DNA of 64,000 nucleotides. Origin: a virus. The notes beneath the pieces were generated by a model that saw nothing but the letters and a program-made list of their open reading frames with translations, ran no database searches and was not told the origin of the DNA. Where the stretch lies: positions 1 to 64,000 of the IMG/VR virus record IMGVR_UViG_3300023210_000011; one strand, 5' to 3'. Positions 4,523-59,078 of this stretch are shown here, piece by piece. A program made the position numbers and the translations under genes. Every line of letters starts with the position of its first letter. Within the stretch, counting starts at the first letter, position 1.

Positions 4523-4923
4523 GCCTTTTCCTTTGGGGCCCAGTCGATGTCGAGCTCTCGCGCCCTCTCTACGAGGCGCTCCTTCCAGTGAACCGGAGAG
4601 AAGGAGTCGTGCAGCCACTGGAGCCAGCTCAGGAGGTCGACGAGGTCGTGTCTGTCGATCTCCGCATCGGGGAGGCCCTGACTCTTCTGGATTGCACGCA
4701 GAACCTCGGACTCTACGGAGGCTTGTCCCTCGAGGTCCTCAGTGTAGAACTCACTGGTGATCAGACAGCCCAGGGCGCACTTCAGTCCTTCTGGGGATCG
4801 GTACCTGCAGGAGGAGGGCGGGGTGAGAGGCGTATCAAGGCCTACGATGGCCTTCTTTCCCTGCTTCATCAGGTGGTCGGCACTCTTGATGAAGATCTTC
4901 TTGACCACGTCAGTCGTCTGCAT
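4519..4923 (-). CDS. hypothetical phage protein
   Basis: ORF track 4519..5043; start refined to MQTTDVVK. Confidence 0.65.
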   Translation of the reverse strand: MQTTDVVKKIFIKSADHLMKQGKKAIVGLDTPLTPPSSCRYRSPEGLKCALGCLITSEFYTEDLEGQASVESEVLRAIQKSQGLPDAEIDRHDLVDLLSWLQWLHDSFSPVHWKERLVERARELDIDWAPKEKA

Positions 4924-9433: not shown

Positions 9434-10012
9434 ATGGACTACGACCAGATGTACTTCTTTCGTGATGAACTCGAGAAGATCGCAGTGATCGCAGGAACCC
9501 TGGGGTTCCTCGGGAGGTACGCGGCCAAAGGCAGTCCGGTCTCCAGGGCGGCCTTGTCCGTGCTGGGTAAGACACCCACAGGCAGAGCCGCCATGGCCAA
9601 CTCCATTCCAAGAATCGCGAAAGGCCCTGCTCAGACGGCCGTGTCGAACTCCTGGATGTCTGCTCACCGGGCAAGGCCCCCCGCCGTCCCATCTTCCAAG
9701 ATGCTGGATGGGGTACCCGTACCCAAAGAAGCCCTGGGGGTCAGGGGAGCGGTGTCGAGGGCAGGCATGAGCGCAGTGAAGGGCACGCAGAAGGCATCGG
9801 ATACCGCACAACGACTCGCGGCCACCCCAACTGCGCAGAGGTTCGCCCAGGGGCTGCGCGGTGCTGATGGAGGGATCTTCGAGGCAGGAGTGGCGGCTGC
9901 CGCACCACACGTCGCCAAGGCCACCGCACCACACGTCGCGAAAGCATCCAAGACGCTCAAGGGAGCCATTCAGCCTCTGCGCCTACCCAGGACAGGCTTC
10001 GCTGGCGGGTGA
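9434..10012 (+). CDS. Ala/Lys-rich protein with FFRDELEKIA leader (putative virion internal protein)
   Basis: ORF track 9086..10012; start refined to ATG 9434 after GGAG; lone plus-strand gene in the minus-strand block; tandem APHVAKA repeat. Confidence 0.7.
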   Translation: MDYDQMYFFRDELEKIAVIAGTLGFLGRYAAKGSPVSRAALSVLGKTPTGRAAMANSIPRIAKGPAQTAVSNSWMSAHRARPPAVPSSKMLDGVPVPKEALGVRGAVSRAGMSAVKGTQKASDTAQRLAATPTAQRFAQGLRGADGGIFEAGVAAAAPHVAKATAPHVAKASKTLKGAIQPLRLPRTGFAGG

Positions 10013-10025
10013 CGTCCTCCACCGA

Positions 10026-10044
10026 TCAAACAAAATTTCGCACC
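10026..10044. repeat. 19-bp direct repeat TCAAACAAAATTTCGCACC (other copy at 9314-9332)
   Basis: identical 19-mers flank the plus-strand gene 9434..10012. Confidence 0.85.
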
Positions 10045-10165
10045 CTCTCGGTGATCTACCAATAGATACCTATACCAAGAGGTACCAGGAGAGGATGCGA
10101 AGCGTCCCCACGACACGAGGCATCCCCCAGTGGGGGGTGCCTTGACTGTCGTGATGTGGCTGCGT

Positions 10166-10207
10166 GTAGAGGAAGGTGCAGAGGAAGATGTAGAGGAATG
10201 AGCAGAG
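10166..10207. repeat. 3-4 tandem 12-bp purine-rich units (G(T/C)AGAGGAAG(G/A)T-like)
   Basis: gtagaggaaggt gcagaggaagat gtagaggaatga gcagag within a non-coding region. Confidence 0.6.
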
Positions 10208-10676
10208 AAAAAGAACCGGAAAGAGCCCGATGGGGGCGAGGAAAGAATGAGGGGAAAAGGTAAGTTAATCAGTATGCCCTTTAGAAGTCTAAAGGCCGTT
10301 AGGACCCTTTATAGGCCATTCCCCGATGGGACACGCGGTTAGAGCCTGTATTCCCCCGATGGGAAGGGTGCGAATAAGTGTACTCCAGACCCCCCCCTAT
10401 ACGGTGTAAGGCACTGCTTCCTACTGAAATCTCTTTTCGTACTCTTTCTATGGGCTAAGAAAAGGCCACGACTCATCCCTCTTCCGGGGGGGAGTCGCGC
10501 CTTACCGGGGTGAGGGAGAGGCTTACCCAAGGAGGTGCGAATGCTTGTTGGAAGACAGCAGGTAGTGTGCCCCTCCCTCGAGTTCCTTATGGCGCGGAAT
10601 CTTCCCTTTTTGTGAAACAGCTAAGAAGTGGGCCAGTGGCGCGGGACCCCCCGAAGGAGGCCCCGCACCGCGGTCT

Positions 10677-11054
10677 CTACATCATCGACAACTCGTCGGC
10701 CAGGTCCTTGAGCTTCCGTCCCTCCCCCGCGGGGACGGACGGGGCGGAAGCGATGGTCTTCATCGCCCCCGACAGCTGGCGGGACGCCTTGGCGGCGTAG
10801 TAGCCGTCACCGGACCCGAAGGCCCAATCTGCCGCGCCGTGGGCCACGGCAGTCACGCCCGCCCCGACCAGCCCACCGCCGACGACGTTGGCCCCGGCGA
10901 GGTGGGCGATGCCCGCCCCCGCCGCGCCCCCGAGCCCCGCCACCGCCAGGTGGCGGGGGATGCGGGAGCCCCCGAGAATCCCGTCCACATTCCCACTGTA
11001 CTTCTCGTACAGCGTCACGCCCGTCGCGCCCTTCTCGCCCGTGGTGTTACCCAT
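10677..11054 (-). CDS. glycine-zipper-like membrane protein
   Basis: ORF track 10677..11153; start refined after GAGGAGG; GLGGAAGAGIAHLAGANVVGGGLVGAGV GxxxG repeats. Confidence 0.7.
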   Translation of the reverse strand: MGNTTGEKGATGVTLYEKYSGNVDGILGGSRIPRHLAVAGLGGAAGAGIAHLAGANVVGGGLVGAGVTAVAHGAADWAFGSGDGYYAAKASRQLSGAMKTIASAPSVPAGEGRKLKDLADELSMM

Positions 11055-11481
11055 GATGTCCTCCTCAGGACAGTAGCGAGAGGGGGGTTTACTCCTCCCG
11101 CTACAATACTTATGCCCTCGAACACCCCCAAATTGAAGATCTGCGCACCTCAAAGAAAGACCTTCAAGCTCGGTGTATGTCCTTAGGAACCTCAGAAGGG
11201 CCCGAACCGTTACTTACGTGGGTCACAGGGGTCCCCATCGCACTGCCCCCATTTTACTTACCGGGGAAAATCCGAGAAGAAGCGCCTCCCCCTGGTAGCC
11301 GCCACTCCGGGAGCATTCTGCCAACCGTCACATTTCCCAGAAGAAGTCCTCCCTGCTCATCCGCCGCACCCCACGTGATAGGACACTGAGATATTTTCTG
11401 GGGTAGAATTTACTTCTTGGATATTTCTGGGCTAAGAAGTAAGAGAGGGGGCGGAGCCCCGCCCCCGGAGGGGCGGGGCCG

Positions 11482-11667
11482 CTACAGGGGCTCCATGTCC
11501 AGGCCCTCGACGGCCAGGACCAGAAGGTCCTGGGCTCGCCGGGCCTTGTGGTCCGCCTTCTGGAGGCCCTCGACGGCCTCCTCGAGGCGAGCCTTGGCCC
11601 GCTCGTGTCGGGCGGCCGAGGCCGCCTTGTGGTTCTCGAACCATGTCTTCATCTCGCTCGCGGTCAT
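11482..11667 (-). CDS. small coiled-coil hypothetical protein
   Basis: ORF track 11482..11679; GGAG precedes ATG 11667; promoter motif at 11719. Confidence 0.6.
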   Translation of the reverse strand: MTASEMKTWFENHKAASAARHERAKARLEEAVEGLQKADHKARRAQDLLVLAVEGLDMEPL

Positions 11668-11797
11668 GTCGAACTCCATAGAGAGAAAGGGGGGTTCAAT
11701 CCTTCCTCGCTACTATTATTATGCCTTTTTTGAGGGGTAAATTAAGGAATGGGCCGCCACCGCCTCCGGCCTGGAGAACCAGGCCGGAGGCAGTTGT

Positions 11798-12196
11798 CTA
11801 CCGGGCGGGGAGCAGCGTGCCCCCGCGGAGGACGCCGACCCCTCCGTAGAGGTCGGCCACCATGTTCGCCACTCGGGCGAACGTGACGTCCTCGTCCGTG
11901 ACGAAGTCGGGGCGGGGCAAGCCCGCCTGGACGACCTCGTCGACGAAGAACGTGACGTCCTCCGCCGACTTCGCCCCACGGGGCTGGAAGAAGAAGGTGA
12001 TCCGCAGGCCACCCCCCTGATCCTCAGTGCGGATGGCGAAGAAGCCCTCGCGGGCCTCCTCGCCGACCACCAGCTCTGCGCGAGCGCGGAGCTGGTGCCA
12101 GGGGGTGTCTCCCCCCAGCTGGATCACGCCCCGGCCGCAGCCGGGGCAGGTGGGGGTGAAAGTCTCGGTCTCGGTCCCACAGTGCATGCAATGCAT
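11798..12196 (-). CDS. zinc-ribbon hypothetical protein
   Basis: CMHC...CPGC; promoter motif at 12252. Confidence 0.65.
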   Translation of the reverse strand: MHCMHCGTETETFTPTCPGCGRGVIQLGGDTPWHQLRARAELVVGEEAREGFFAIRTEDQGGGLRITFFFQPRGAKSAEDVTFFVDEVVQAGLPRPDFVTDEDVTFARVANMVADLYGGVGVLRGGTLLPAR

Positions 12197-12335
12197 CAGA
12201 ACATCCAGTGAGGAGAGAAGGGGGTGAAATCTACCCTCGTCACTACTATTATTATGCCGTTTTCCAACCTGGATTTATGATAGGGAGGGATGCCCGCCCC
12301 CGGAGGGGCGAGGCGCGGAAGGTCACGTAGAGGGG

Positions 12336-21690: not shown

Positions 21691-21822
21691 CTACGCGATG
21701 GCGATGTCCGCGCAAACCGAGATCCAGTTCCACCAGATGATCACCATGGTGGGCTGCTCCTCCATCCAGTCCAGGAGCTCATCCCAGCTCTCAGATTCGA
21801 CTGTGTCAGCATCCGCCACCAT
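21691..21822 (-). CDS. small hypothetical protein
   Basis: 3' part of ORF 21691..21969; GGAGG upstream of ATG 21822. Confidence 0.4.
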   Translation of the reverse strand: MVADADTVESESWDELLDWMEEQPTMVIIWWNWISVCADIAIA

Positions 21823-21901
21823 ACTGCCTCCGGGGTCACAGCTAACGTATCGCGCGAGTGCGCCCTGGCCGCCCACAAGGGACGGCCAGGGCACGGAGAT
21901 C

Positions 21902-22363
21902 TCAGGAGGCGGAGCGGAGCGCCTTGATGCGCTCCGTCTCCGCGTTCTTCTGCTTGACCTCGAGCTCACCCTCGCGCGTCTGCGCGAGGGTGAGCTGCGC
22001 CTCGGCGAGGCGCAGCTGCGCCTCCGCCTCGGTCTCCCGCACCGCCGCCTCCTCGGCGGCGACGTCGAGCGCGCGCATCGCGACGCGCTCGGCGACGGGC
22101 AGGACCGCCGCCGTGAGATTGTTGAGACCCTTGAGGCTCACCTGGAGGGCCCTGCGGCCCTCCTTGGCGAGATTCGAGCGGAGGGCCACGTAGCCCTCCG
22201 CCCCGACGGAGGTGGCCAGGGCCACCTCCGCCTCGGCCATCTTACTGGCCAGCGTGATCTCGGCGAGGCCCAGGGCCTCGCCGACGTCCAGGGCCCGCAG
22301 GCCCAGGATGCGGACGAGCTTGCGCTCGCCCTCGTCCGACTTCATCCGCTTCTTCCGTCCCAT
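21902..22363 (-). CDS. coiled-coil hypothetical protein
   Basis: ORF track; AGGAGG RBS; promoter motif at 22418. Confidence 0.7.
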   Translation of the reverse strand: MGRKKRMKSDEGERKLVRILGLRALDVGEALGLAEITLASKMAEAEVALATSVGAEGYVALRSNLAKEGRRALQVSLKGLNNLTAAVLPVAERVAMRALDVAAEEAAVRETEAEAQLRLAEAQLTLAQTREGELEVKQKNAETERIKALRSAS

Positions 22364-22440
22364 TGTGCCCTCCTGGGCAAGTGGAGAGGTTGGTCATACT
22401 CCTCCCCACTACTATATTTATGCCCGAAATCAGCCTGTAT

Positions 22441-23720: not shown

Positions 23721-25160
23721 TCACGCCATCGCTCCGTCGATCAGCTCCTGAACGCTCCACTTGGGGTGCGCGTCCTGGAGCTCGAGACACTTCTCCAAGA
23801 TCGGGCCAAAGTGCCATCCCGGCTTCATCTTCCGTGCAATCAGGTCCCGGCCCTGCACCTTCGGATCCGGAGGAGCGTTCTCGAACTCCGCCGCCCGGTC
23901 CAGAACCAACTGGGAGGTCTTGTGGTTCCAGTCGGGACTGCCAGTCTTGAGGGACCGAGTCTTCCAGTCTGCCGAGGTGGCGCATGAATCGCACTGGCAG
24001 ACACTCGCCAGATGCCGCAGAGTGAGGCCGCACGCCCCGAGGCGCCGGTGGAGCCTCGCCCACGCACCGCCCGACGCGTTCCCCTGCATGAGGTTCCACG
24101 GCTGCATGTGCTCACCAACCAAGCACGTGACCTTCTGCCGGAGCTTCTTTCCGCCCCGCTCCCCCGTGAATCGGGAGAGGAATAGATCTGCGGGAGCCCT
24201 CCCCTTCTGGTCGTGTCCCCAGGCGGTCCACAGCCGCTCCTTGGGCGCCTCGTCCCGGGCCACCATCTCCGGAGTGATAGTGGTCAGCGGCTTTCCGATG
24301 TCATGCAGGAAAGCCGCCAGCATGATGACCAGGCGATCCTCCTCGGGCAAGAAGCTCCGGAGCTCAGCCGCCGCATCCAAGGCCAGCAGGCTGTGCACCA
24401 TGACATTGCCCTCTGGGTGGTGATCCGGGCTCTGACCGGTACTCGCCAGCGCCGACAGCTCCGGAGCCATGAACTCCCAGAGTCCGAGGTCGCTGGCCAG
24501 CTGGACCCCGATGCTCGGCTTCTCGGCCTTGAGCATCAGCTTCTCCAGCTCCGCGAAGAGCCGCTCCGGGGGCAGATGCTCCGTCTCCCGCACCATGCTG
24601 CGCATCAGCAGCATGGTGTGTGGGTCCACCGATAGGGCCTTCCGGGGAAGGAGCTGGACGGCCCTCCACACACGAAGGGAGTCCTCCCGGAAGAGGTCGG
24701 GATCCGTTGCCCGGAGAACCCCAAAAGACAGGTCCCGGAGCCCACCCCACTCATCCACAATCTCGCCCGTAGCGATGTCCATCGCCAGGGTGTTGATCGT
24801 GAAGTCGCGACGGCGGGCAGCCTCGCGCACAGACATCGTGGGGTCCACCTCCACCACGAAGTCCTTGTGTCCCTTGCCGACCTTGTTGTCGGTGCGCGGC
24901 ACGTTGATGTCGACGTCCACCCCATCGACGTTCAGCTTGAGGATGCCGAAGGCCCGACCAGCCTCCTTGACGGGATGGTCGGGGAAGAGGGCCGTGATCT
25001 GGTCGAAGTCGAGGCCGAACACCTCGAGATCCCAGTCCTTCGCGGCCCGGTCGCAAAGGAGGTCGATGACAGAGCCACCGACCAGAAGAGCGCGGCCCCC
25101 GCCGCGCTGGATTCGCCGAGCCACCATGTGGACCTCAGCAGGGATTGCGTGGGTGTTCAT
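23721..25160 (-). CDS. cca: class II tRNA nucleotidyltransferase (CCA-adding enzyme) with HD domain
   Basis: LVGGSVIDLL..KDWDLEV, RRRDFTINTL, FREDSLRVWRA, HPEGNVMVHS, AFLHDIGKP; start refined to ATG 25160 after AGGAGG. Confidence 0.92.
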   Translation of the reverse strand: MNTHAIPAEVHMVARRIQRGGGRALLVGGSVIDLLCDRAAKDWDLEVFGLDFDQITALFPDHPVKEAGRAFGILKLNVDGVDVDINVPRTDNKVGKGHKDFVVEVDPTMSVREAARRRDFTINTLAMDIATGEIVDEWGGLRDLSFGVLRATDPDLFREDSLRVWRAVQLLPRKALSVDPHTMLLMRSMVRETEHLPPERLFAELEKLMLKAEKPSIGVQLASDLGLWEFMAPELSALASTGQSPDHHPEGNVMVHSLLALDAAAELRSFLPEEDRLVIMLAAFLHDIGKPLTTITPEMVARDEAPKERLWTAWGHDQKGRAPADLFLSRFTGERGGKKLRQKVTCLVGEHMQPWNLMQGNASGGAWARLHRRLGACGLTLRHLASVCQCDSCATSADWKTRSLKTGSPDWNHKTSQLVLDRAAEFENAPPDPKVQGRDLIARKMKPGWHFGPILEKCLELQDAHPKWSVQELIDGAMA

Positions 25161-25224: not shown

Positions 25225-25540
25225 GGCGGGCCCCACCCGGGGCCCGCCTGGTCTCTTGGTCTCACACGCCCACGTGGGGCCAAGTGAGCTCGTGGGAGAG
25301 CACAGGACTCCCTTCTTCTACCTCCCGGCAAGCCGCCCAACTGGACAGCCTGCGCACAAAGGGGGCAGGAGTCCTGCGCCGTTACCGTACTACCAGCGAC
25401 CCCTCACCTTCCGGTGAGACAACACGCGCCCCGCGCTTTCGCGCTTAAGGTCCCGCCAAGGGACCAGGGTATCTCCCTTTCGGGGGCACGGTTGAGAGCG
25501 ACGTCACCACTGATGTTGGGCGCCCTCTGGTCACTATGTT
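25225..25540 (-). ncRNA. candidate structured RNA (ORF-poor unit with GNRA hairpins)
   Basis: own promoter motif (25555) and terminal hairpin (25226-25248); several GAAA/GGAA-capped hairpins and a 12-bp long-range helix. Confidence 0.45.
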
Positions 25541-25606
25541 CCTCTCTATACATATTATGCCCGAATACGGGCACTATTTAAGCCAGCGGCCCCGGCCCGC
25601 CCCCAT

Positions 25607-26367: not shown

Positions 26368-27183
26368 TCAGGCGAACTTCAGGAACACCGGCCAGACCGT
26401 GTCCCAGCCGAGGCTGGAACGCAGTCCGCCCTCCTTGCGGGGGGCGCCGCCGATGGTGCTGCCGCCGCCCCACCCGTCCTCGATCTCGTTCATGGCAGCC
26501 AGGAAGCCGGGGATGTCCCCGGGTGCGAAGTCCGACCGCTTGCCGACGGTCCAGCCGAAGGTCCCCTCCGGGCCGGGGACCTTCGCCAGCGCCATGATGG
26601 CGCCGGCGGCGTAGGCGGCGGCGAAGTCTCCGCTGACCTCCACCACATTGCCGTTCTTGTCCACGCCGTGCACGGGGCACGGCGGGAACGCGAAGGGCTC
26701 CGGGAGCTGCTCGTCTCCGTGGTCGTACCAGCAGCAGATGTGCTGCTGGTCCTCCCACATCATGTCCCGCGTCTGCGCGACGCGGGGATTCCGCGAGAGA
26801 ATCTTGTGGAGCTTCTCCGGCTTCCGAACCGGCCCGTGGCTGTCCACGAACCCGATGGCCCGGACCAGGTTCCGGACCCGGTCGTCGACCTTGTCCGGGT
26901 TCATCAGCAGCCACAGGCTCAGGCTGCCGTCGGCATCGAGGTCGTTCAAGACGATCTCCATGCCCTCGGGGTTGAACCCGAGGTCGAGGGCGAGCAAGAC
27001 CTGCTCGCAGGTGGAGAGGGTTGCGAAGCGCGAGCACTCCGCGTGGTGGTCGAAGGAGTACGACCGCTTCTCGACGTCGATCTTGGGGCCCCGGCAGGCC
27101 CCGTCGAGGTAGATGGTGCCCGGGGCCATCTCCTCGGGGTTGATGGTGGAACCATAGCGGAAAGTGACGACGGTGTCGCCCAT
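26368..27183 (-). CDS. DHH-superfamily phosphoesterase-like protein
   Basis: YLDG, SFDHH, LNDLDADG (DxD), VDSHG, C-terminal GWGGGSTIGG. Confidence 0.55.
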   Translation of the reverse strand: MGDTVVTFRYGSTINPEEMAPGTIYLDGACRGPKIDVEKRSYSFDHHAECSRFATLSTCEQVLLALDLGFNPEGMEIVLNDLDADGSLSLWLLMNPDKVDDRVRNLVRAIGFVDSHGPVRKPEKLHKILSRNPRVAQTRDMMWEDQQHICCWYDHGDEQLPEPFAFPPCPVHGVDKNGNVVEVSGDFAAAYAAGAIMALAKVPGPEGTFGWTVGKRSDFAPGDIPGFLAAMNEIEDGWGGGSTIGGAPRKEGGLRSSLGWDTVWPVFLKFA

Positions 27184-27310
27184 GTGATGTTCCGAAGCAG
27201 GCAGGGAAAGAACGCACCACTCACGAGCCCGAGGGCCGCCTGCGTGTGGGTGATGCGCGAATCAAGGTGCAGCCAGCCTCAACCCGTAGGGAGGCCAACC
27301 GCGGTATTTG

Positions 27311-27547
27311 CGGTGAGGAGGGGGACTCGAACCCCCCGAGCTCCAAATCACGGTCTCACACAGATCGGTCACGCTCCCCTTCGCCCCTCCCATTGGAGGT
27401 CGGCACGCCCGGCAGGTTGTCCGTCTTCTGCTCCGGCGGTGGCGTGTAGGGTAGACTGGTGCTTAGCAGAAGGGGAAGTTGCTACAGCAGCGCGACTGTG
27501 TGATTCCGATTTGGTGCTCCCCCCCGTATGCTTGGGGTCCTCTCACC
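27311..27547 (-). ncRNA. tRNA-like/tmRNA-shaped structured RNA (~237 nt), CCA not encoded
   Basis: 5' GGTGAG pairs with 3' CTCACC plus discriminator G; D-like arm CCCC-AAGCATAC-GGGG; T arm GGGGG-TTCGAGT-CCCCC; long interrupted helix replaces the anticodon arm. Confidence 0.7.
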
Positions 27548-27735
27548 ATATATGAAGTGTGGTCCGGGTTCCGGAGCCCCGTTGCCCCGTGTTCTCCGGA
27601 ACCCGGCCACACTTGAAATCTTCGAGCTGGTTACTCACCTCTGCTCTACTTACTTTATGCCCCAAACAGGTACGGAATTTAGGGTACGAGCTAAGAAGTG
27701 CGTGATAGGCGCCGCCCTTTCGGGCGACGCCATTC

Positions 27736-29057: not shown

Positions 29058-29460
29058 TGGTGGACCTGGTGGGAGTCGAACCCACGTCCGCAGCATCATT
29101 CCTCAGTCCGTTCGCTACATCCCCGTACTTGACCCAGCGGGGCGGGTGTCCCAGGTGGCTTCCCCTGGCTCCAGTTGTCCTTCACGCGAGGCTCTAAAGG
29201 CCTCGCCGCATTCCAGCCCGCTGAGCAACTTCCTCTCTCTTGAGCTTGCGAAGTCTCGTTTTACACCTGGTGAAGCTCGACCAGCTTCCTCACCAAGCAC
29301 CGGGGCTCACGGAGTCCCCGGACTTCTCTCACGCGGCCGCGGCCACGGGAGCGAAGTGGTTGTTGTTGTTGGCAATTGTCGTTTGCCTCACCGTTAGGCC
29401 GGTGAGCACGCCGCAGCGCGAACTTTCGTGCAGATACCCCGTCGAAACCGTTTCAGGCCC
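29058..29460 (-). ncRNA. ssrA: tmRNA (transfer-messenger RNA), tag (A)ANNNNHFAPVAAAA
   Basis: 5' GGGCCTGAAACGGTTTCGACGGGG; 3' GACGTGGGTTCGACTCCCACCAGGTCC-A-CCA; G3.U70 alanine identity; tag ORF 29373..29329. Confidence 0.93.
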
Positions 29461-39753: not shown

Positions 39754-40688
39754 AACCCGACTACCGAGGCCTGCGGGCGCACATGCAGAAGGCGAGTCCG
39801 TTCCAGGAAAAGGCGGGCGGCATCCATGGGAGCCCTCATGGAGGCCACAGCCGAGAGGCCCTCCTCGCAGAGCAGGAGCGGGTACGCAGGCAGTTGGCCG
39901 GGGAGAAGGTAGCGGGCGCCCGAGAAGCTCTGCGAGTTTTTCTCACGGGAAAGGTTCCGGTCCGCCACGGAACTACCAAGGCGGTGGCAAAGAAGATTCG
40001 CGCCACCGGCCTGCGTCCGCAGGGGTCAGCAGGCATCTCTTCGTTGCTCGCCGTTCCCGGAGAAGAAGGACTTGCCTTCACTACGAGGTCGAAGGCCATG
40101 GCGAAAAACTACGCTCAGCAGGCTGAAGGCCTCGCCAAGGCGAAGGCGCTGAGGAGGCACATACCGATTGAGCAGAAGCGGCAGATCCTGAACTCCCCTG
40201 CGGTGCAGGGCATGCAGCGCCAGTTCGAGGCTACCGGAAGCTCTGCGAATATGGGAGACGTGTTGCAGGCTCAAGCGGGCAGGGCCCTATCCTTCTTCGG
40301 CAAGGGAGATGTTGTGGAGGCCCGCGTTCCCTGGAAGAAGCTGCGGGCGCGCGAGGCTCCTGGGAGGGAACTCCATGCACCCGTGGTAAAGAGCCAGAGG
40401 GAGGCGCTGTCCCAGATTCACCCCTCTCTCGAACAAGTCCCGGCCGCAGCGTTCATGACTGATGTTCCTGTTCGCGGGGGCTTGCCGGCTGAGTACATCA
40501 AAGGGTCTCCCTCGTATATGCGCACGAGTGTGGGCAGCCTCCGTGACCACCTTCGGAGCATCAAGGACGAGCCCAAGGCCTTTGGCAAGGAGGTTCTTCG
40601 CGCCTACGCCGGCATGCAGCATCGTCCCTCGACTCTGCTGGGCCAGGATCCTGCTCTCCGCAGAAGGCTCCTCGGAGTAGCCGAGTAG
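39750..40688 (+). CDS. putative ADP-ribosyltransferase-fold protein
   Basis: VRHGTT..VA..I...GLRP and LAFTT....AKNYA motifs. Confidence 0.55.
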   Translation: MKPDYRGLRAHMQKASPFQEKAGGIHGSPHGGHSREALLAEQERVRRQLAGEKVAGAREALRVFLTGKVPVRHGTTKAVAKKIRATGLRPQGSAGISSLLAVPGEEGLAFTTRSKAMAKNYAQQAEGLAKAKALRRHIPIEQKRQILNSPAVQGMQRQFEATGSSANMGDVLQAQAGRALSFFGKGDVVEARVPWKKLRAREAPGRELHAPVVKSQREALSQIHPSLEQVPAAAFMTDVPVRGGLPAEYIKGSPSYMRTSVGSLRDHLRSIKDEPKAFGKEVLRAYAGMQHRPSTLLGQDPALRRRLLGVAE

Positions 40689-40886
40689 TCAACACCGCGA
40701 ATAGTCCATTTGCCCTTGGCATGAAAAAGAAGATAATTCGCTTCATCGTGGCCCCTGTAAAGGTGTCACACCAGGCTTTCCCGGACAATCCAGTACGTCC
40801 CTGGTGCGGTGAATACTCCTTCGATTTCTCCGGAGATTTCTCGGTTTCCTCACACCGATGTTATACCGGAAAAACGGAGGGAATTT

Positions 40887-58090: not shown

Positions 58091-58435
58091 ATGCCCGACA
58101 CCAAGACCCTGGACCTGGCGACTCAGCAGCTCCTCGCCCTCGTCGGAGATGCGATCACAGAGGTCAGCACCGCCCAGGCACTGAACCAGGTCGCTTCGGC
58201 AAGCCTTCGGTCCTCCTTGGAGGATGCGATCCTGCTGCTGGACTCCGAAGCATTCGGTGAAGTGGGAGCTTTCGCGGTAGGAGGAGAGGCGTCGCCTATC
58301 ACTGGTACGCTTCCCTCCCGCACCGTGGGTGGTAAGATCCAGAGAATCCGTGAGCTCCGGGCGGCCCTTTTCGGTTCCGCTGGGAACTCAGTAGGTGCCA
58401 TGGACATCCTCCTGCAGGCCGCCTCGGTGGAGTGA
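58091..58435 (+). CDS. hypothetical protein
   Basis: 3' part of ORF 57944..58435 starting MPDTKTLD. Confidence 0.65.
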   Translation: MPDTKTLDLATQQLLALVGDAITEVSTAQALNQVASASLRSSLEDAILLLDSEAFGEVGAFAVGGEASPITGTLPSRTVGGKIQRIRELRAALFGSAGNSVGAMDILLQAASVE

Positions 58436-58436
58436 C

Positions 58437-59078
58437 ATGGACTACCCCCTTCTCGCGTTCCAGCAGACCAAGAACATCCAGCGGGTGACGTTCTTCGGTC
58501 AGGGCACCGCCCTGGACATTCGCGGGCTGAACTTCCGCGACATCACTGGGGTGATCGTCAACGGGGTCCGCTCTCCGGTGTTCGTCACGGTCAGTCCGAC
58601 GCGGATCCTGGCCGACATCCCAGCCGGGGAGGTTGGGGTCATCATCCGGTCGGTGGCGGTCCTCACTGCGAACGTCAGTGGCAGCAAGGCGTCCATTGTC
58701 AGCTTTGAAGCTGCGGTCTCGGCGCAGCAGTTGGGGGACTCTGGGCTCCTCGTTCAGCGATTCCTCAAGGTGCTCCTGACTACGCAGGGGTCGGACATCT
58801 TCGCTCCGCAGGCCGGAGGAAACCTCTTGGCGTTGATCGGGGAGATCTCCGAATCAGAGCGCCAGAATGTGGAAGCACTGGCCATGCTGTACGTTCAGCA
58901 GGCGGAAGAGGTAATGATCACCTCGCAGGCACGGAACCCGCAGCTCCCCGACTCCGCCAAGCTGGGGCGGGTCACCGTTCTTCGGGCGTCATATAGTCCC
59001 CAAGAAACCGCCCTCGATATTCGGCTGCGGATCCAGTCCCTTGACGGGACGGTCGCGATCGCAGGACTCGCCCTCTAA
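58437..59078 (+). CDS. baseplate wedge subunit (gp25/GPW-like) with N-terminal IPT/TIG-like part
   Basis: LVQRFLKVLLTTQGSDIFAPQAGGNL pattern; directly upstream of the baseplate J-like gene. Confidence 0.7.
   Translation: MDYPLLAFQQTKNIQRVTFFGQGTALDIRGLNFRDITGVIVNGVRSPVFVTVSPTRILADIPAGEVGVIIRSVAVLTANVSGSKASIVSFEAAVSAQQLGDSGLLVQRFLKVLLTTQGSDIFAPQAGGNLLALIGEISESERQNVEALAMLYVQQAEEVMITSQARNPQLPDSAKLGRVTVLRASYSPQETALDIRLRIQSLDGTVAIAGLAL

Follow-up and report, generated by a model that had tools for sequence, protein, structure and literature searches.

What is encoded in a gap between phage genes when both ends of the sequence look like those of a tRNA and the middle does not? The case arises in an uncultured, large, GC-rich phage, known from the IMG/VR record IMGVR_UViG_3300023210_000011 (131 kb, 63% G+C, completeness estimated at ~70%), of which positions 1-64,000 were analysed and are referred to here as the window. 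On its minus strand, a 550-nt gap free of open reading frames (ORFs) contains a tRNA-like RNA of 237 nt (positions 27311-27547), which an earlier note, made from the sequence alone, had read as an undescribed tRNA mimic built like transfer-messenger RNA (tmRNA). The best reading of the comparisons reported below is that it is a gene-encoded, stable, non-decoding tRNA-like RNA, carried as an accessory cassette by one large, GC-rich phage lineage.

Architecture and conservation of the tRNA-like RNA

Numbered from window position 27547 as residue 1, the RNA contains every complementary segment named in the earlier note, each where it had been placed (Table 1). Its ends pair as an acceptor helix followed by a discriminator-like G and by CAA instead of CCA, as described there, and the T arm is canonical, with G53-C61 closing its 5-bp stem. 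Unconstrained minimum free energy (MFE) folding returns the 6-bp acceptor, a 4-bp D-like hairpin, a 28-bp interrupted helix, the inner hairpins and the T arm. The likeness to the tRNA-like domain (TLD) of tmRNA is supported by the MFE folds of both this RNA and its homolog (see below), in which the acceptor and the T arm are joined by a P2-like helix abutting the latter. The other two traits reported from the sequence, the lack of a G3.U70 pair and of a tag frame, also hold: pair 3:70 is U-A in the register set by the discriminator G, or G-C in that set by a discriminator C, in both homologs alike, ARAGORN reports no tag, and no ORF is conserved between them. T-arm motifs number four in the 131-kb record (both strands) versus 0.6 expected, two of them being those of the tRNA-like RNA and of the tmRNA. 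A canonical T arm stacked on an acceptor helix within a 550-nt ORF-free gap is non-random; conservation, however, counts for more in the case for this RNA than the rarity of the T arm.

Ten independent assemblies of the same phage are identical over the region, without a single change, and therefore provide no covariation information. A more distant relative, L067, was reached through the 200-aa protein encoded between the tmRNA and the tRNA-like RNA, a 37%-identical homolog of which is found on ~168-kb Logan contigs. The gene order in L067 is a tmRNA remnant, ORFs of 194, 98 and 44 aa, a 470-nt gap, a 291-aa gene and a CCA-adding enzyme (76% identical to that of the window phage), this last gene being located 2 kb downstream of the RNA in both phages. 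A single-sequence covariance model (CM) identifies in the syntenic gap a 188-nt homolog (L067:11223-11410; 21.8 bits, E 1.5e-4), for which Rfam returns no match. The two RNAs share 62% identity over 169 alignable columns, and the intergenic sequence surrounding them is not alignable.

Both homologs share the acceptor core GUGAG/CUCAC followed by CG. The first acceptor pair is G-C in the window and A.C in L067, and conversely pair 7:66 is A.C in the window and C-G in L067. Neither encodes CCA (G-CAA in the window, G-CGA in L067), whereas the tmRNA, or what remains of it in L067, does. The T arm GGGG-UUCGAGU-CCCC is identical, and the helix immediately 5' of it is GAGC/GCUC in the window and GCCGC/GUGGC in L067. 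Separate MFE folds of the two RNAs predict the same inner three-way junction, in which a CCUUC/GAAGG closing helix leads to hairpins A and B, the inner hairpins of the earlier note; the GGCGA and GUGACCGA blocks are common to both, and the AAUG loop of hairpin B is invariant. Two of the five pairs of hairpin B have changed on both sides with pairing kept (C-G to G.U, and U-A to G-C). The same holds for a hairpin found 14-18 nt downstream of the RNAs, which reads CCGCUC-CC-UUCG-GG-UU-GAGCGG in L067: its UNCG loop is kept, and its outer three pairs differ on both sides and still pair (GGC...GCU in the window, CCG...CGG in L067), a comparison read by eye from the sequences, as MAFFT misaligns the outer stem. 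These compensatory changes are independent of alignment choices. When the alignment is fitted to the CM, pairing holds in 95% of cells, and both sides have changed in 14 pairs; shuffles give 7.0 +/- 1.9 such pairs and slid controls no more than 6. The comparison thus backs the acceptor, the T arm, the helix adjacent to it and the inner three-way junction.

Several observations weigh against a conserved, functional RNA, or limit what can be said of it. Its folding energy is ordinary for this phage genome: the MFE has a z-score of -2.97 against dinucleotide shuffles, and in a same-genome control 281 of the 2188 segments of 237 nt fold at least as well (GC-corrected z -1.3), so that the case is built on architecture and conservation. 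The covariation is thin, since only two lineages are available, and part of it comes from the model-fitted alignment. The long interrupted helix described in the earlier note is present in the MFE fold of the window RNA, but its exact 28-bp length and register are not conserved: the own MFE fold of L067 contains a short T-arm-adjacent helix only (GCCGC/GUGGC plus CGC/GCG), and forcing the long register on L067 yields -39 kcal/mol versus -80 kcal/mol for its own fold. Covariation in the long helix was discounted because the projected structure is unfavourable there. The D-like arm is likewise present in the window RNA, where its loop is devoid of a GG of the G18 G19 type, and lineage-specific, as the MFE fold of L067 displays no equivalent hairpin. 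As to the pseudoknot suggested between residues 76-83 and 116-123, the segments are indeed complementary, but the 3' partner belongs to a stretch that L067 lacks and has no equivalent in it, and the pairing was set aside. The stacked layers from the T loop to the helix end number 13 in the window RNA and 12 in L067, and consequently the exact 5' end, the discriminator and the RNase P site cannot be placed. No tRNA gene is found in the 131-kb record (ARAGORN, default and with introns of 0-400 nt), which makes the RNA the sole CCA-less tRNA-shaped substrate seen there; as the record is ~70% complete, tRNA genes may sit in its unseen part. Finally, a third syntenic phage, L070 (CCA-adding enzyme 72% identical), is devoid of both the tmRNA and the tRNA-like RNA. 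In L070, a promoter-like motif leads straight into a conserved hairpin in the 5' untranslated region (5'-UTR) of the downstream gene, which identifies the RNA as an accessory cassette that has been placed behind the promoter motif, ahead of the leader belonging to the next gene.

Comparison with known tRNA-like RNAs

Searches of Rfam 15, at gathering thresholds and at E<=10, report no family for the RNA at this site. The best sub-threshold match is tRNA-Sec (19.7 bits versus a gathering threshold of 47), which covers the 3' third only; the tmRNA model scores below this value at the site, and at gathering thresholds tmRNA is matched only at 29058-29460. ARAGORN reports no tRNA there, either by default or with introns of 0-400 nt. 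These analyses, which the earlier note had called for, thus return no known family, no intron-containing tRNA and no tmRNA variant, and a literature search identified no described RNA that accounts for the element. No blastn match was obtained for the window RNA or its L067 homolog in 50,697 phage records (INPHARED), and exact and gapped pattern searches of IMG/VR returned no copy, their one chance match being an ordinary tRNA. The RNA is also absent upstream of homologs of the 271-aa protein encoded next to it (L005-L009), around relatives of the CCA-adding enzyme of up to 54% identity (L020-L045) and in the whole records G001-G003, as well as around matches to the tmRNA 3' end (L047-L057). 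Further contigs with the CCA-adding enzyme (L072/L077, L078) are non-syntenic or miss the upstream region. CMs R1 and R2 return a single match in the entire record, the tRNA-like RNA itself, and the two-sequence model R2 retrieves only true tRNAs, at ~20 bits, over 0.54 Mb of loci. The collection of homologs, likewise called for, therefore amounts to one distant syntenic member, in which hairpin B and the 3' hairpin carry compensatory changes. Further members of the family can be sought with the covariance model obtained in this work.

The closest architectural parallel is tmRNA (RF00023). In both, the 5' and 3' ends pair into an acceptor that stacks on a canonical T arm, there is no variable loop, and the anticodon arm gives way to a helix lying directly against the T arm, beyond which the molecule folds into a structured inner domain; the phage RNA is, moreover, encoded near a tmRNA gene. 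In contrast to tmRNA, it has no G3.U70, no tag ORF, no encoded CCA and no tmRNA-model match, and its inner domain is a three-way junction rather than the PK1-ORF-PK2-4 arrangement. The lack of a tag frame alone would not exclude a tmRNA, since forms without a coding sequence (CDS) exist: that of the mycobacteriophage DS6A has been reported to inhibit the endogenous tmRNA, and organellar mini-tmRNAs are also known (PMC11915505). Such TLD-only molecules measure ~65-85 nt, whereas the phage RNA is much longer. Candidate tag frames opened after the junction hairpins end differently in the two homologs and shift at an indel between them. An identity as tmRNA was rejected on these grounds, together with the presence of a genuine, CCA-encoding tmRNA nearby. 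A decoding tRNA was rejected as well, because no cloverleaf with an anticodon stem-loop is found by ARAGORN in either mode and the Rfam tRNA clan remains below threshold.

Non-decoding, tRNA-shaped small RNAs have been known in phages for fifty years. RNA C and RNA D of phage T4 (the species 1 and 2 RNAs) possess tRNA-like ends and are processed together with tRNAs. They are still listed as "RNAs of yet unknown functions" (PMC9697503). The window RNA resembles them in being phage-encoded, untranslated and non-decoding, with tRNA-like ends and no anticodon. The T4 RNAs differ from it in being located inside a tRNA cluster, while this record yielded no tRNA gene, and the window RNA is larger and of tmRNA-like topology; the likeness is one of description. 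The INPHARED records presumably include T4-like phages, and the blastn result there argues against close homology to T4 rnaC or rnaD only. Given these precedents, "undescribed" applies to the family, which is new, and not to the kind, known since T4 RNA C and RNA D. What the family adds is its own design, in which a conserved three-way junction is mounted on a tmRNA-like frame.

Another tRNA mimic, the Y RNA YrlA, possesses T and D arms, and that of M. smegmatis is cut by RNase P and receives CCA, indicating that tRNA enzymes accept such mimics (PMC4201824). YrlA resembles the window RNA in mimicking tRNA, and RNAs of this type occur in phages too. However, its acceptor-like stem is closed by a loop and both termini sit in the Ro60-binding helix, the gene lying beside that of Ro60 (PMC4201824), whereas the own ends of the window RNA form the acceptor, its inner helix is closed and it has no Rfam match. 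A search with PF05731 (TROVE) detected no Ro60 gene in the ~70% complete record, although positive controls responded, and a YrlA identity was discarded. As for tRNA-Sec and allo-tRNAs, which exhibit acceptor-T branches of the 8/5, 8/4 or 9/3 types (RF01852; PMC5389517), the window acceptor can be read as eight layers on a 5-bp T stem with a discriminator G, but the anticodon arm and the long variable arm are missing, the Rfam score is far below gathering, and the 13-layer reading fails in L067.

Proposed role and competing explanations

How might such an RNA work? Its precursor would carry a ~95-nt leader containing a 21-bp hairpin, and a 3' trailer ending in the UNCG hairpin, from which the RNA must be released; judged from the sequence, the arrangement fits processing by RNase P. 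Host RNase P would cut at the acceptor/T-arm minihelix, and the 3' end would then be trimmed and CCA-tailed, plausibly by the phage CCA-adding enzyme. The tRNA frame may thereby supply processing sites, protected ends and a tRNA elbow, while the three-way junction, with its AAUG-loop hairpin and its GGCGA and GUGACCGA blocks, would be displayed in the position of the anticodon loop and bind in trans a protein, of host or phage origin, that deals with tRNA, tmRNA or small RNAs. This division of labour between an acceptor/T-arm half for processing and end protection and a junction as the working part is, in our estimate, evenly poised between right and wrong. The neighbourhood is telling, with a tmRNA, a CCA-adding enzyme, a DHH-like phosphoesterase and no ordinary tRNA gene in the record. 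If processed and CCA-tailed, the RNA would be the only tRNA-shaped, CCA-less substrate of the phage CCA-adding enzyme found in the record, and a manageable system in which to look for the partners of such RNAs. The earlier note had also suggested maturation by the phage CCA enzyme, as well as decoy roles toward SmpB, EF-Tu or synthetases, all of it purely conjectural.

The RNA lies on the same strand as the DHH-like gene, with the promoter motif on one side and the conserved 5'-UTR hairpin of that gene on the other; a DHH-like gene is found downstream in both carriers, and the 3' hairpin, without a clear U-tract or a detected terminator, makes read-through likely. It could therefore be a module acting in cis on the DHH-like mRNA, where RNase P and RNase Z would act as punctuation setting the 5' end or stability of the message, the excised piece having no role of its own. 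We find this unlikely, as L070 has the same gene in the same promoter-leader arrangement without the RNA, and as none of the homologs in L005-L009, out of 87 found, has it upstream. Furthermore, cutting needs the acceptor/T-arm minihelix only, yet the ~100-nt inner junction exhibits conserved blocks and compensatory changes.

Decidedly unlikely is a tag-less analogue of tmRNA modulating trans-translation, an RNA that, once charged, would associate with EF-Tu and/or SmpB and either join stalled ribosomes or sequester the host rescue machinery. The topology fits the TLD plus P2 of tmRNA, a tmRNA gene or its remnant is close by in both carriers, and CDS-less tmRNAs have precedents in phage and organelles (PMC11915505). 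In neither homolog, however, is there a G3.U70 pair or an ORF shared with the other, the sequence shows no sign of GAC junction motifs of the tmRNA type, and the tmRNA model scores under the tRNA-Sec match at the site. The phage, in addition, already owns a complete tmRNA, and a search of the 131-kb record for smpB detected none.

A decoy or sponge against tRNA-directed host defences, such as anticodon or 3'-end nucleases and toxins that acetylate or cleave tRNA, working alongside a CCA repair enzyme, seems quite improbable. The RNA does cluster with an HD-domain CCA-adding enzyme and a DHH phosphoesterase, and its acceptor/T-arm half is the part recognised by tRNA 3'-end enzymes. The idea is speculative, no defence or counter-defence gene was identified nearby, and an RNA without an anticodon stem-loop cannot mimic the substrate of an anticodon nuclease, which makes that role, put forward in the earlier note, unlikely.

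Two further possibilities are very improbable. The first is that the RNA represents a new class of tRNA/tmRNA hybrid that lacks a tag but can be charged, and that it is handed to ribosomes or another enzyme using aminoacyl-tRNA, the three-way junction replacing the functions of SmpB and the mRNA domain; this would, if true, be a phage-specific route to manipulate translation or ribosome rescue. The second is a decaying remnant or an element acting as DNA, in either case without a function as RNA: a tRNA or tmRNA gene in degeneration, the 3' end of a host tRNA copied as in an attP site, or inverted repeats for replication or packaging. The unexceptional folding energy, the decay of the tmRNA in this lineage (only its 3' 50 nt in L067, nothing in L070), the absence of the RNA from L070 and the break of two assemblies inside the element would suit a remnant. 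On the other hand, the acceptor, the T loop and the inner blocks are kept although the neighbouring protein is only 37% identical and the flanking intergenic DNA unalignable, and hairpin B and the 3' hairpin have changed in a compensatory manner. The 22-nt 3' end of the RNA has no match in 185,579 species genomes, which weakens the idea of an attP site and led to the rejection of a copied host tRNA 3' end, and no integrase is adjacent.

Lastly, a decoding tRNA interrupted in its anticodon loop by a group I or other intron would explain the tRNA-like ends and the ~160-nt insert found in place of an anticodon arm, but is extremely improbable: with introns of 0-400 nt allowed, ARAGORN still reports no tRNA, Rfam returns no group I or group II match even at E <= 10, no 5-bp stem with a 7-nt U33 loop assembles from the flanks of the insert, which differs by 49 nt between the homologs without a conserved anticodon-loop remnant, and known group I introns are larger than 160 nt.

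Flanking elements and gene neighbourhood

The positions of the features are collected in Table 1. The likely genes around the RNA, as judged by G+C content at third codon positions (GC3), all lie on the minus strand, in the order CCA-adding enzyme, three small ORFs, 271-aa gene, 550-nt gap, 98-aa zinc-ribbon ORF, two ORFs and tmRNA, the last at 1.5 kb from the tRNA-like RNA.

Table 1. Features of the tRNA-like RNA and of its surroundings in the window
Feature	Position	Strand	Basis
tRNA-like RNA, 237 nt including the discriminator-like G, then CAA, not CCA	27311..27547	-	sequence, MFE fold, CM
Acceptor GGUGAG (RNA 1-6) / CUCACC (231-236), then G237 and CAA	27542..27547 / 27312-27317	-	sequence
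D-like hairpin CCCC-AAGCAUAC-GGGG, CCCC (RNA 11-14) / GGGG (23-26)	27522..27537	-	sequence, MFE fold
Long P2-like helix, 28 bp, five segments	27489..27519 (5' strand), 27338-27375 (3' strand)	-	MFE fold
Long-helix segment GAGC / GCUC	RNA 29 / 207		sequence
Long-helix segment CCAAAUC / GAUUUGG	RNA 34 / 199		sequence
Complementary segment UCACACAG / CUGUGUGA	RNA 45 / 185		sequence
Complementary segment UCGCGCU / AGCGUGA	RNA 53 / 173		sequence
Inner domain: closing helix, hairpins A and B, conserved GGCGA and GUGACCGA blocks	27376..27475	-	MFE folds
Inner-domain closing helix CCCCUUC / GAAGGGG	RNA 73 / 166		sequence
Possible pseudoknot CUUCUGCU / AGCAGAAG	RNA 76 / 116		complementarity
Hairpin A CACGCC / GGCGUG	RNA 102 / 139		sequence
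Hairpin B CCUCC / GGAGG, AAUG loop	RNA 149 / 158		sequence
T arm GGGGG-UUCGAGU-CCCCC (RNA 212-228)	27320..27336	-	sequence
Promoter-like motif (GGGCATAAAGTAAGTAGAGC...), 113 nt upstream of the RNA 5' end	27636..27660	-	motif search
Leader hairpin, 21 bp, one bulged A, ending 7 nt before the RNA	27555..27614	-	sequence
3' hairpin GGCCUC-CC-UACG-GG-UU-GAGGCU, 14 nt after the discriminator	27275..27296	-	sequence
Conserved 5'-UTR hairpin of the DHH-like gene, outside the RNA, marking the cassette insertion point	27213..27258	-	three-phage alignment
DHH/DHHA1-like phosphoesterase gene (probable), 271 aa, immediately downstream of the RNA	26368..27183	-	motifs, predicted fold
CCA-adding enzyme gene, class II nucleotidyltransferase with HD domain	23721..25160	-	Pfam, PHROG
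Full-length tmRNA, encoded CCA, tag ANNNNHFAPVAAAA	29058..29460	-	ARAGORN; Rfam RF00023, 77.4 bits

The motif GGGCATAAWAKnnGTAGAG (GCATAAWRK..RGAG), found upstream of the RNA, occurs four times in the 131-kb record, in each case intergenic and on the minus strand (window 27660, 25560, 23099 and 21018), one copy preceding the CCA-adding enzyme gene. It is also found in the relatives, at L067:11143-11165, before the RNA homolog, and at L070:4655-4680 and 4862-4885, where one copy precedes the leader of the DHH gene, and it may represent a phage-specific promoter class. From the copy at 25560, a ~220-nt untranslated leader with several hairpins extends to the start of the CCA-adding enzyme (window 25340-25560, minus strand). 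The sequence of the leader hairpin upstream of the RNA is not conserved, the ~60-nt leader of L067 containing a different, 8-bp hairpin. At the 3' hairpin, no terminator was found. The 5'-UTR hairpin of the DHH-like gene can be aligned across the window, L067:11462-11510 and L070:4903-4950 and may act as a cis-regulatory element.

The CCA-adding enzyme matches the Pfam families PolyA_pol (2e-16), PolyA_pol_RNAbd and HD, and PHROG 2244, tRNA nucleotidyltransferase (7e-57). A 10-nt complement of the conserved CCAGUCUNCC block, located inside its gene, was considered as a target of the RNA and dismissed as a coincidence, since it does not covary in L067. Among the other phages with this enzyme, a 198-kb phage (L004, 36% identity) has tRNA genes without encoded CCA, as well as a tRNA-like stretch (L004:5270-5341) with CUCUGAA in its anticodon loop and unpaired acceptor strands.

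The 271-aa protein returns no Pfam match and no PDB sequence match. Its 87 homologs share invariant SFDHH, DxD and GGG..GG.PR motifs, and it belongs to a family that is widespread yet outside Pfam coverage. In its AlphaFold2 (AF2) model (pLDDT 92), VIA-align reports top matches that are all of the DHH family (PAP phosphatase 8a8k, Z 8.8; RecJ2 7ykv, Z 8.1), followed by NrnA, PDE and GdpP, with the whole model covered; these Z values barely exceed the tool background, and the matches are mutually consistent. Foldseek returned no clear match against the PDB. The protein is thus probably a DHH-like phosphoesterase, and the label given to it in the earlier note probably right. In the L067 and L070 proteins encoded at this position, the three motifs are weak.

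The tmRNA, which the earlier note had correctly reported, is identified by both ARAGORN and Rfam, and its CCA and terminator can be read in the sequence. As a pointer to the host, its 5' end returned only coincidental matches to Lachnospiraceae. In L067 (9614-9990), only the last ~50 nt are kept, comprising the T arm, the acceptor 3' strand, the CCA and the terminator. A 92-aa ORF runs into this remnant, and the 248-nt "tmRNA" that ARAGORN reports there, with the tag AKEEPATIGSLA, is the end of that ORF; the remnant could be a decaying tmRNA or a TLD-only form. An unrelated 89-kb phage, IMGVR_UViG_3300028177_000003 (G001), which has a 49%-identical CCA-adding enzyme and no tRNA genes, possesses a tmRNA without encoded CCA (58317-58682), whose tag ANNNNAFRAAA resembles that of the window.

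Two assemblies of the window phage, L016 and L017, start inside the RNA gene (window 27441 and 27355), and two others stop ~1.1 kb from it, which may reflect a break point or a nearby genome end. Elsewhere in the record, ORF-poor gaps of 0.8-1.1 kb are found at window 9607-10676 and 39969-40808, neither with an Rfam gathering match, and, outside the window, at G000 101066-101895. The most stable segments of the genome are located at window ~21800-22400 and ~10900-12200, where stretches of 237 nt fold at -140 to -164 kcal/mol on both strands.

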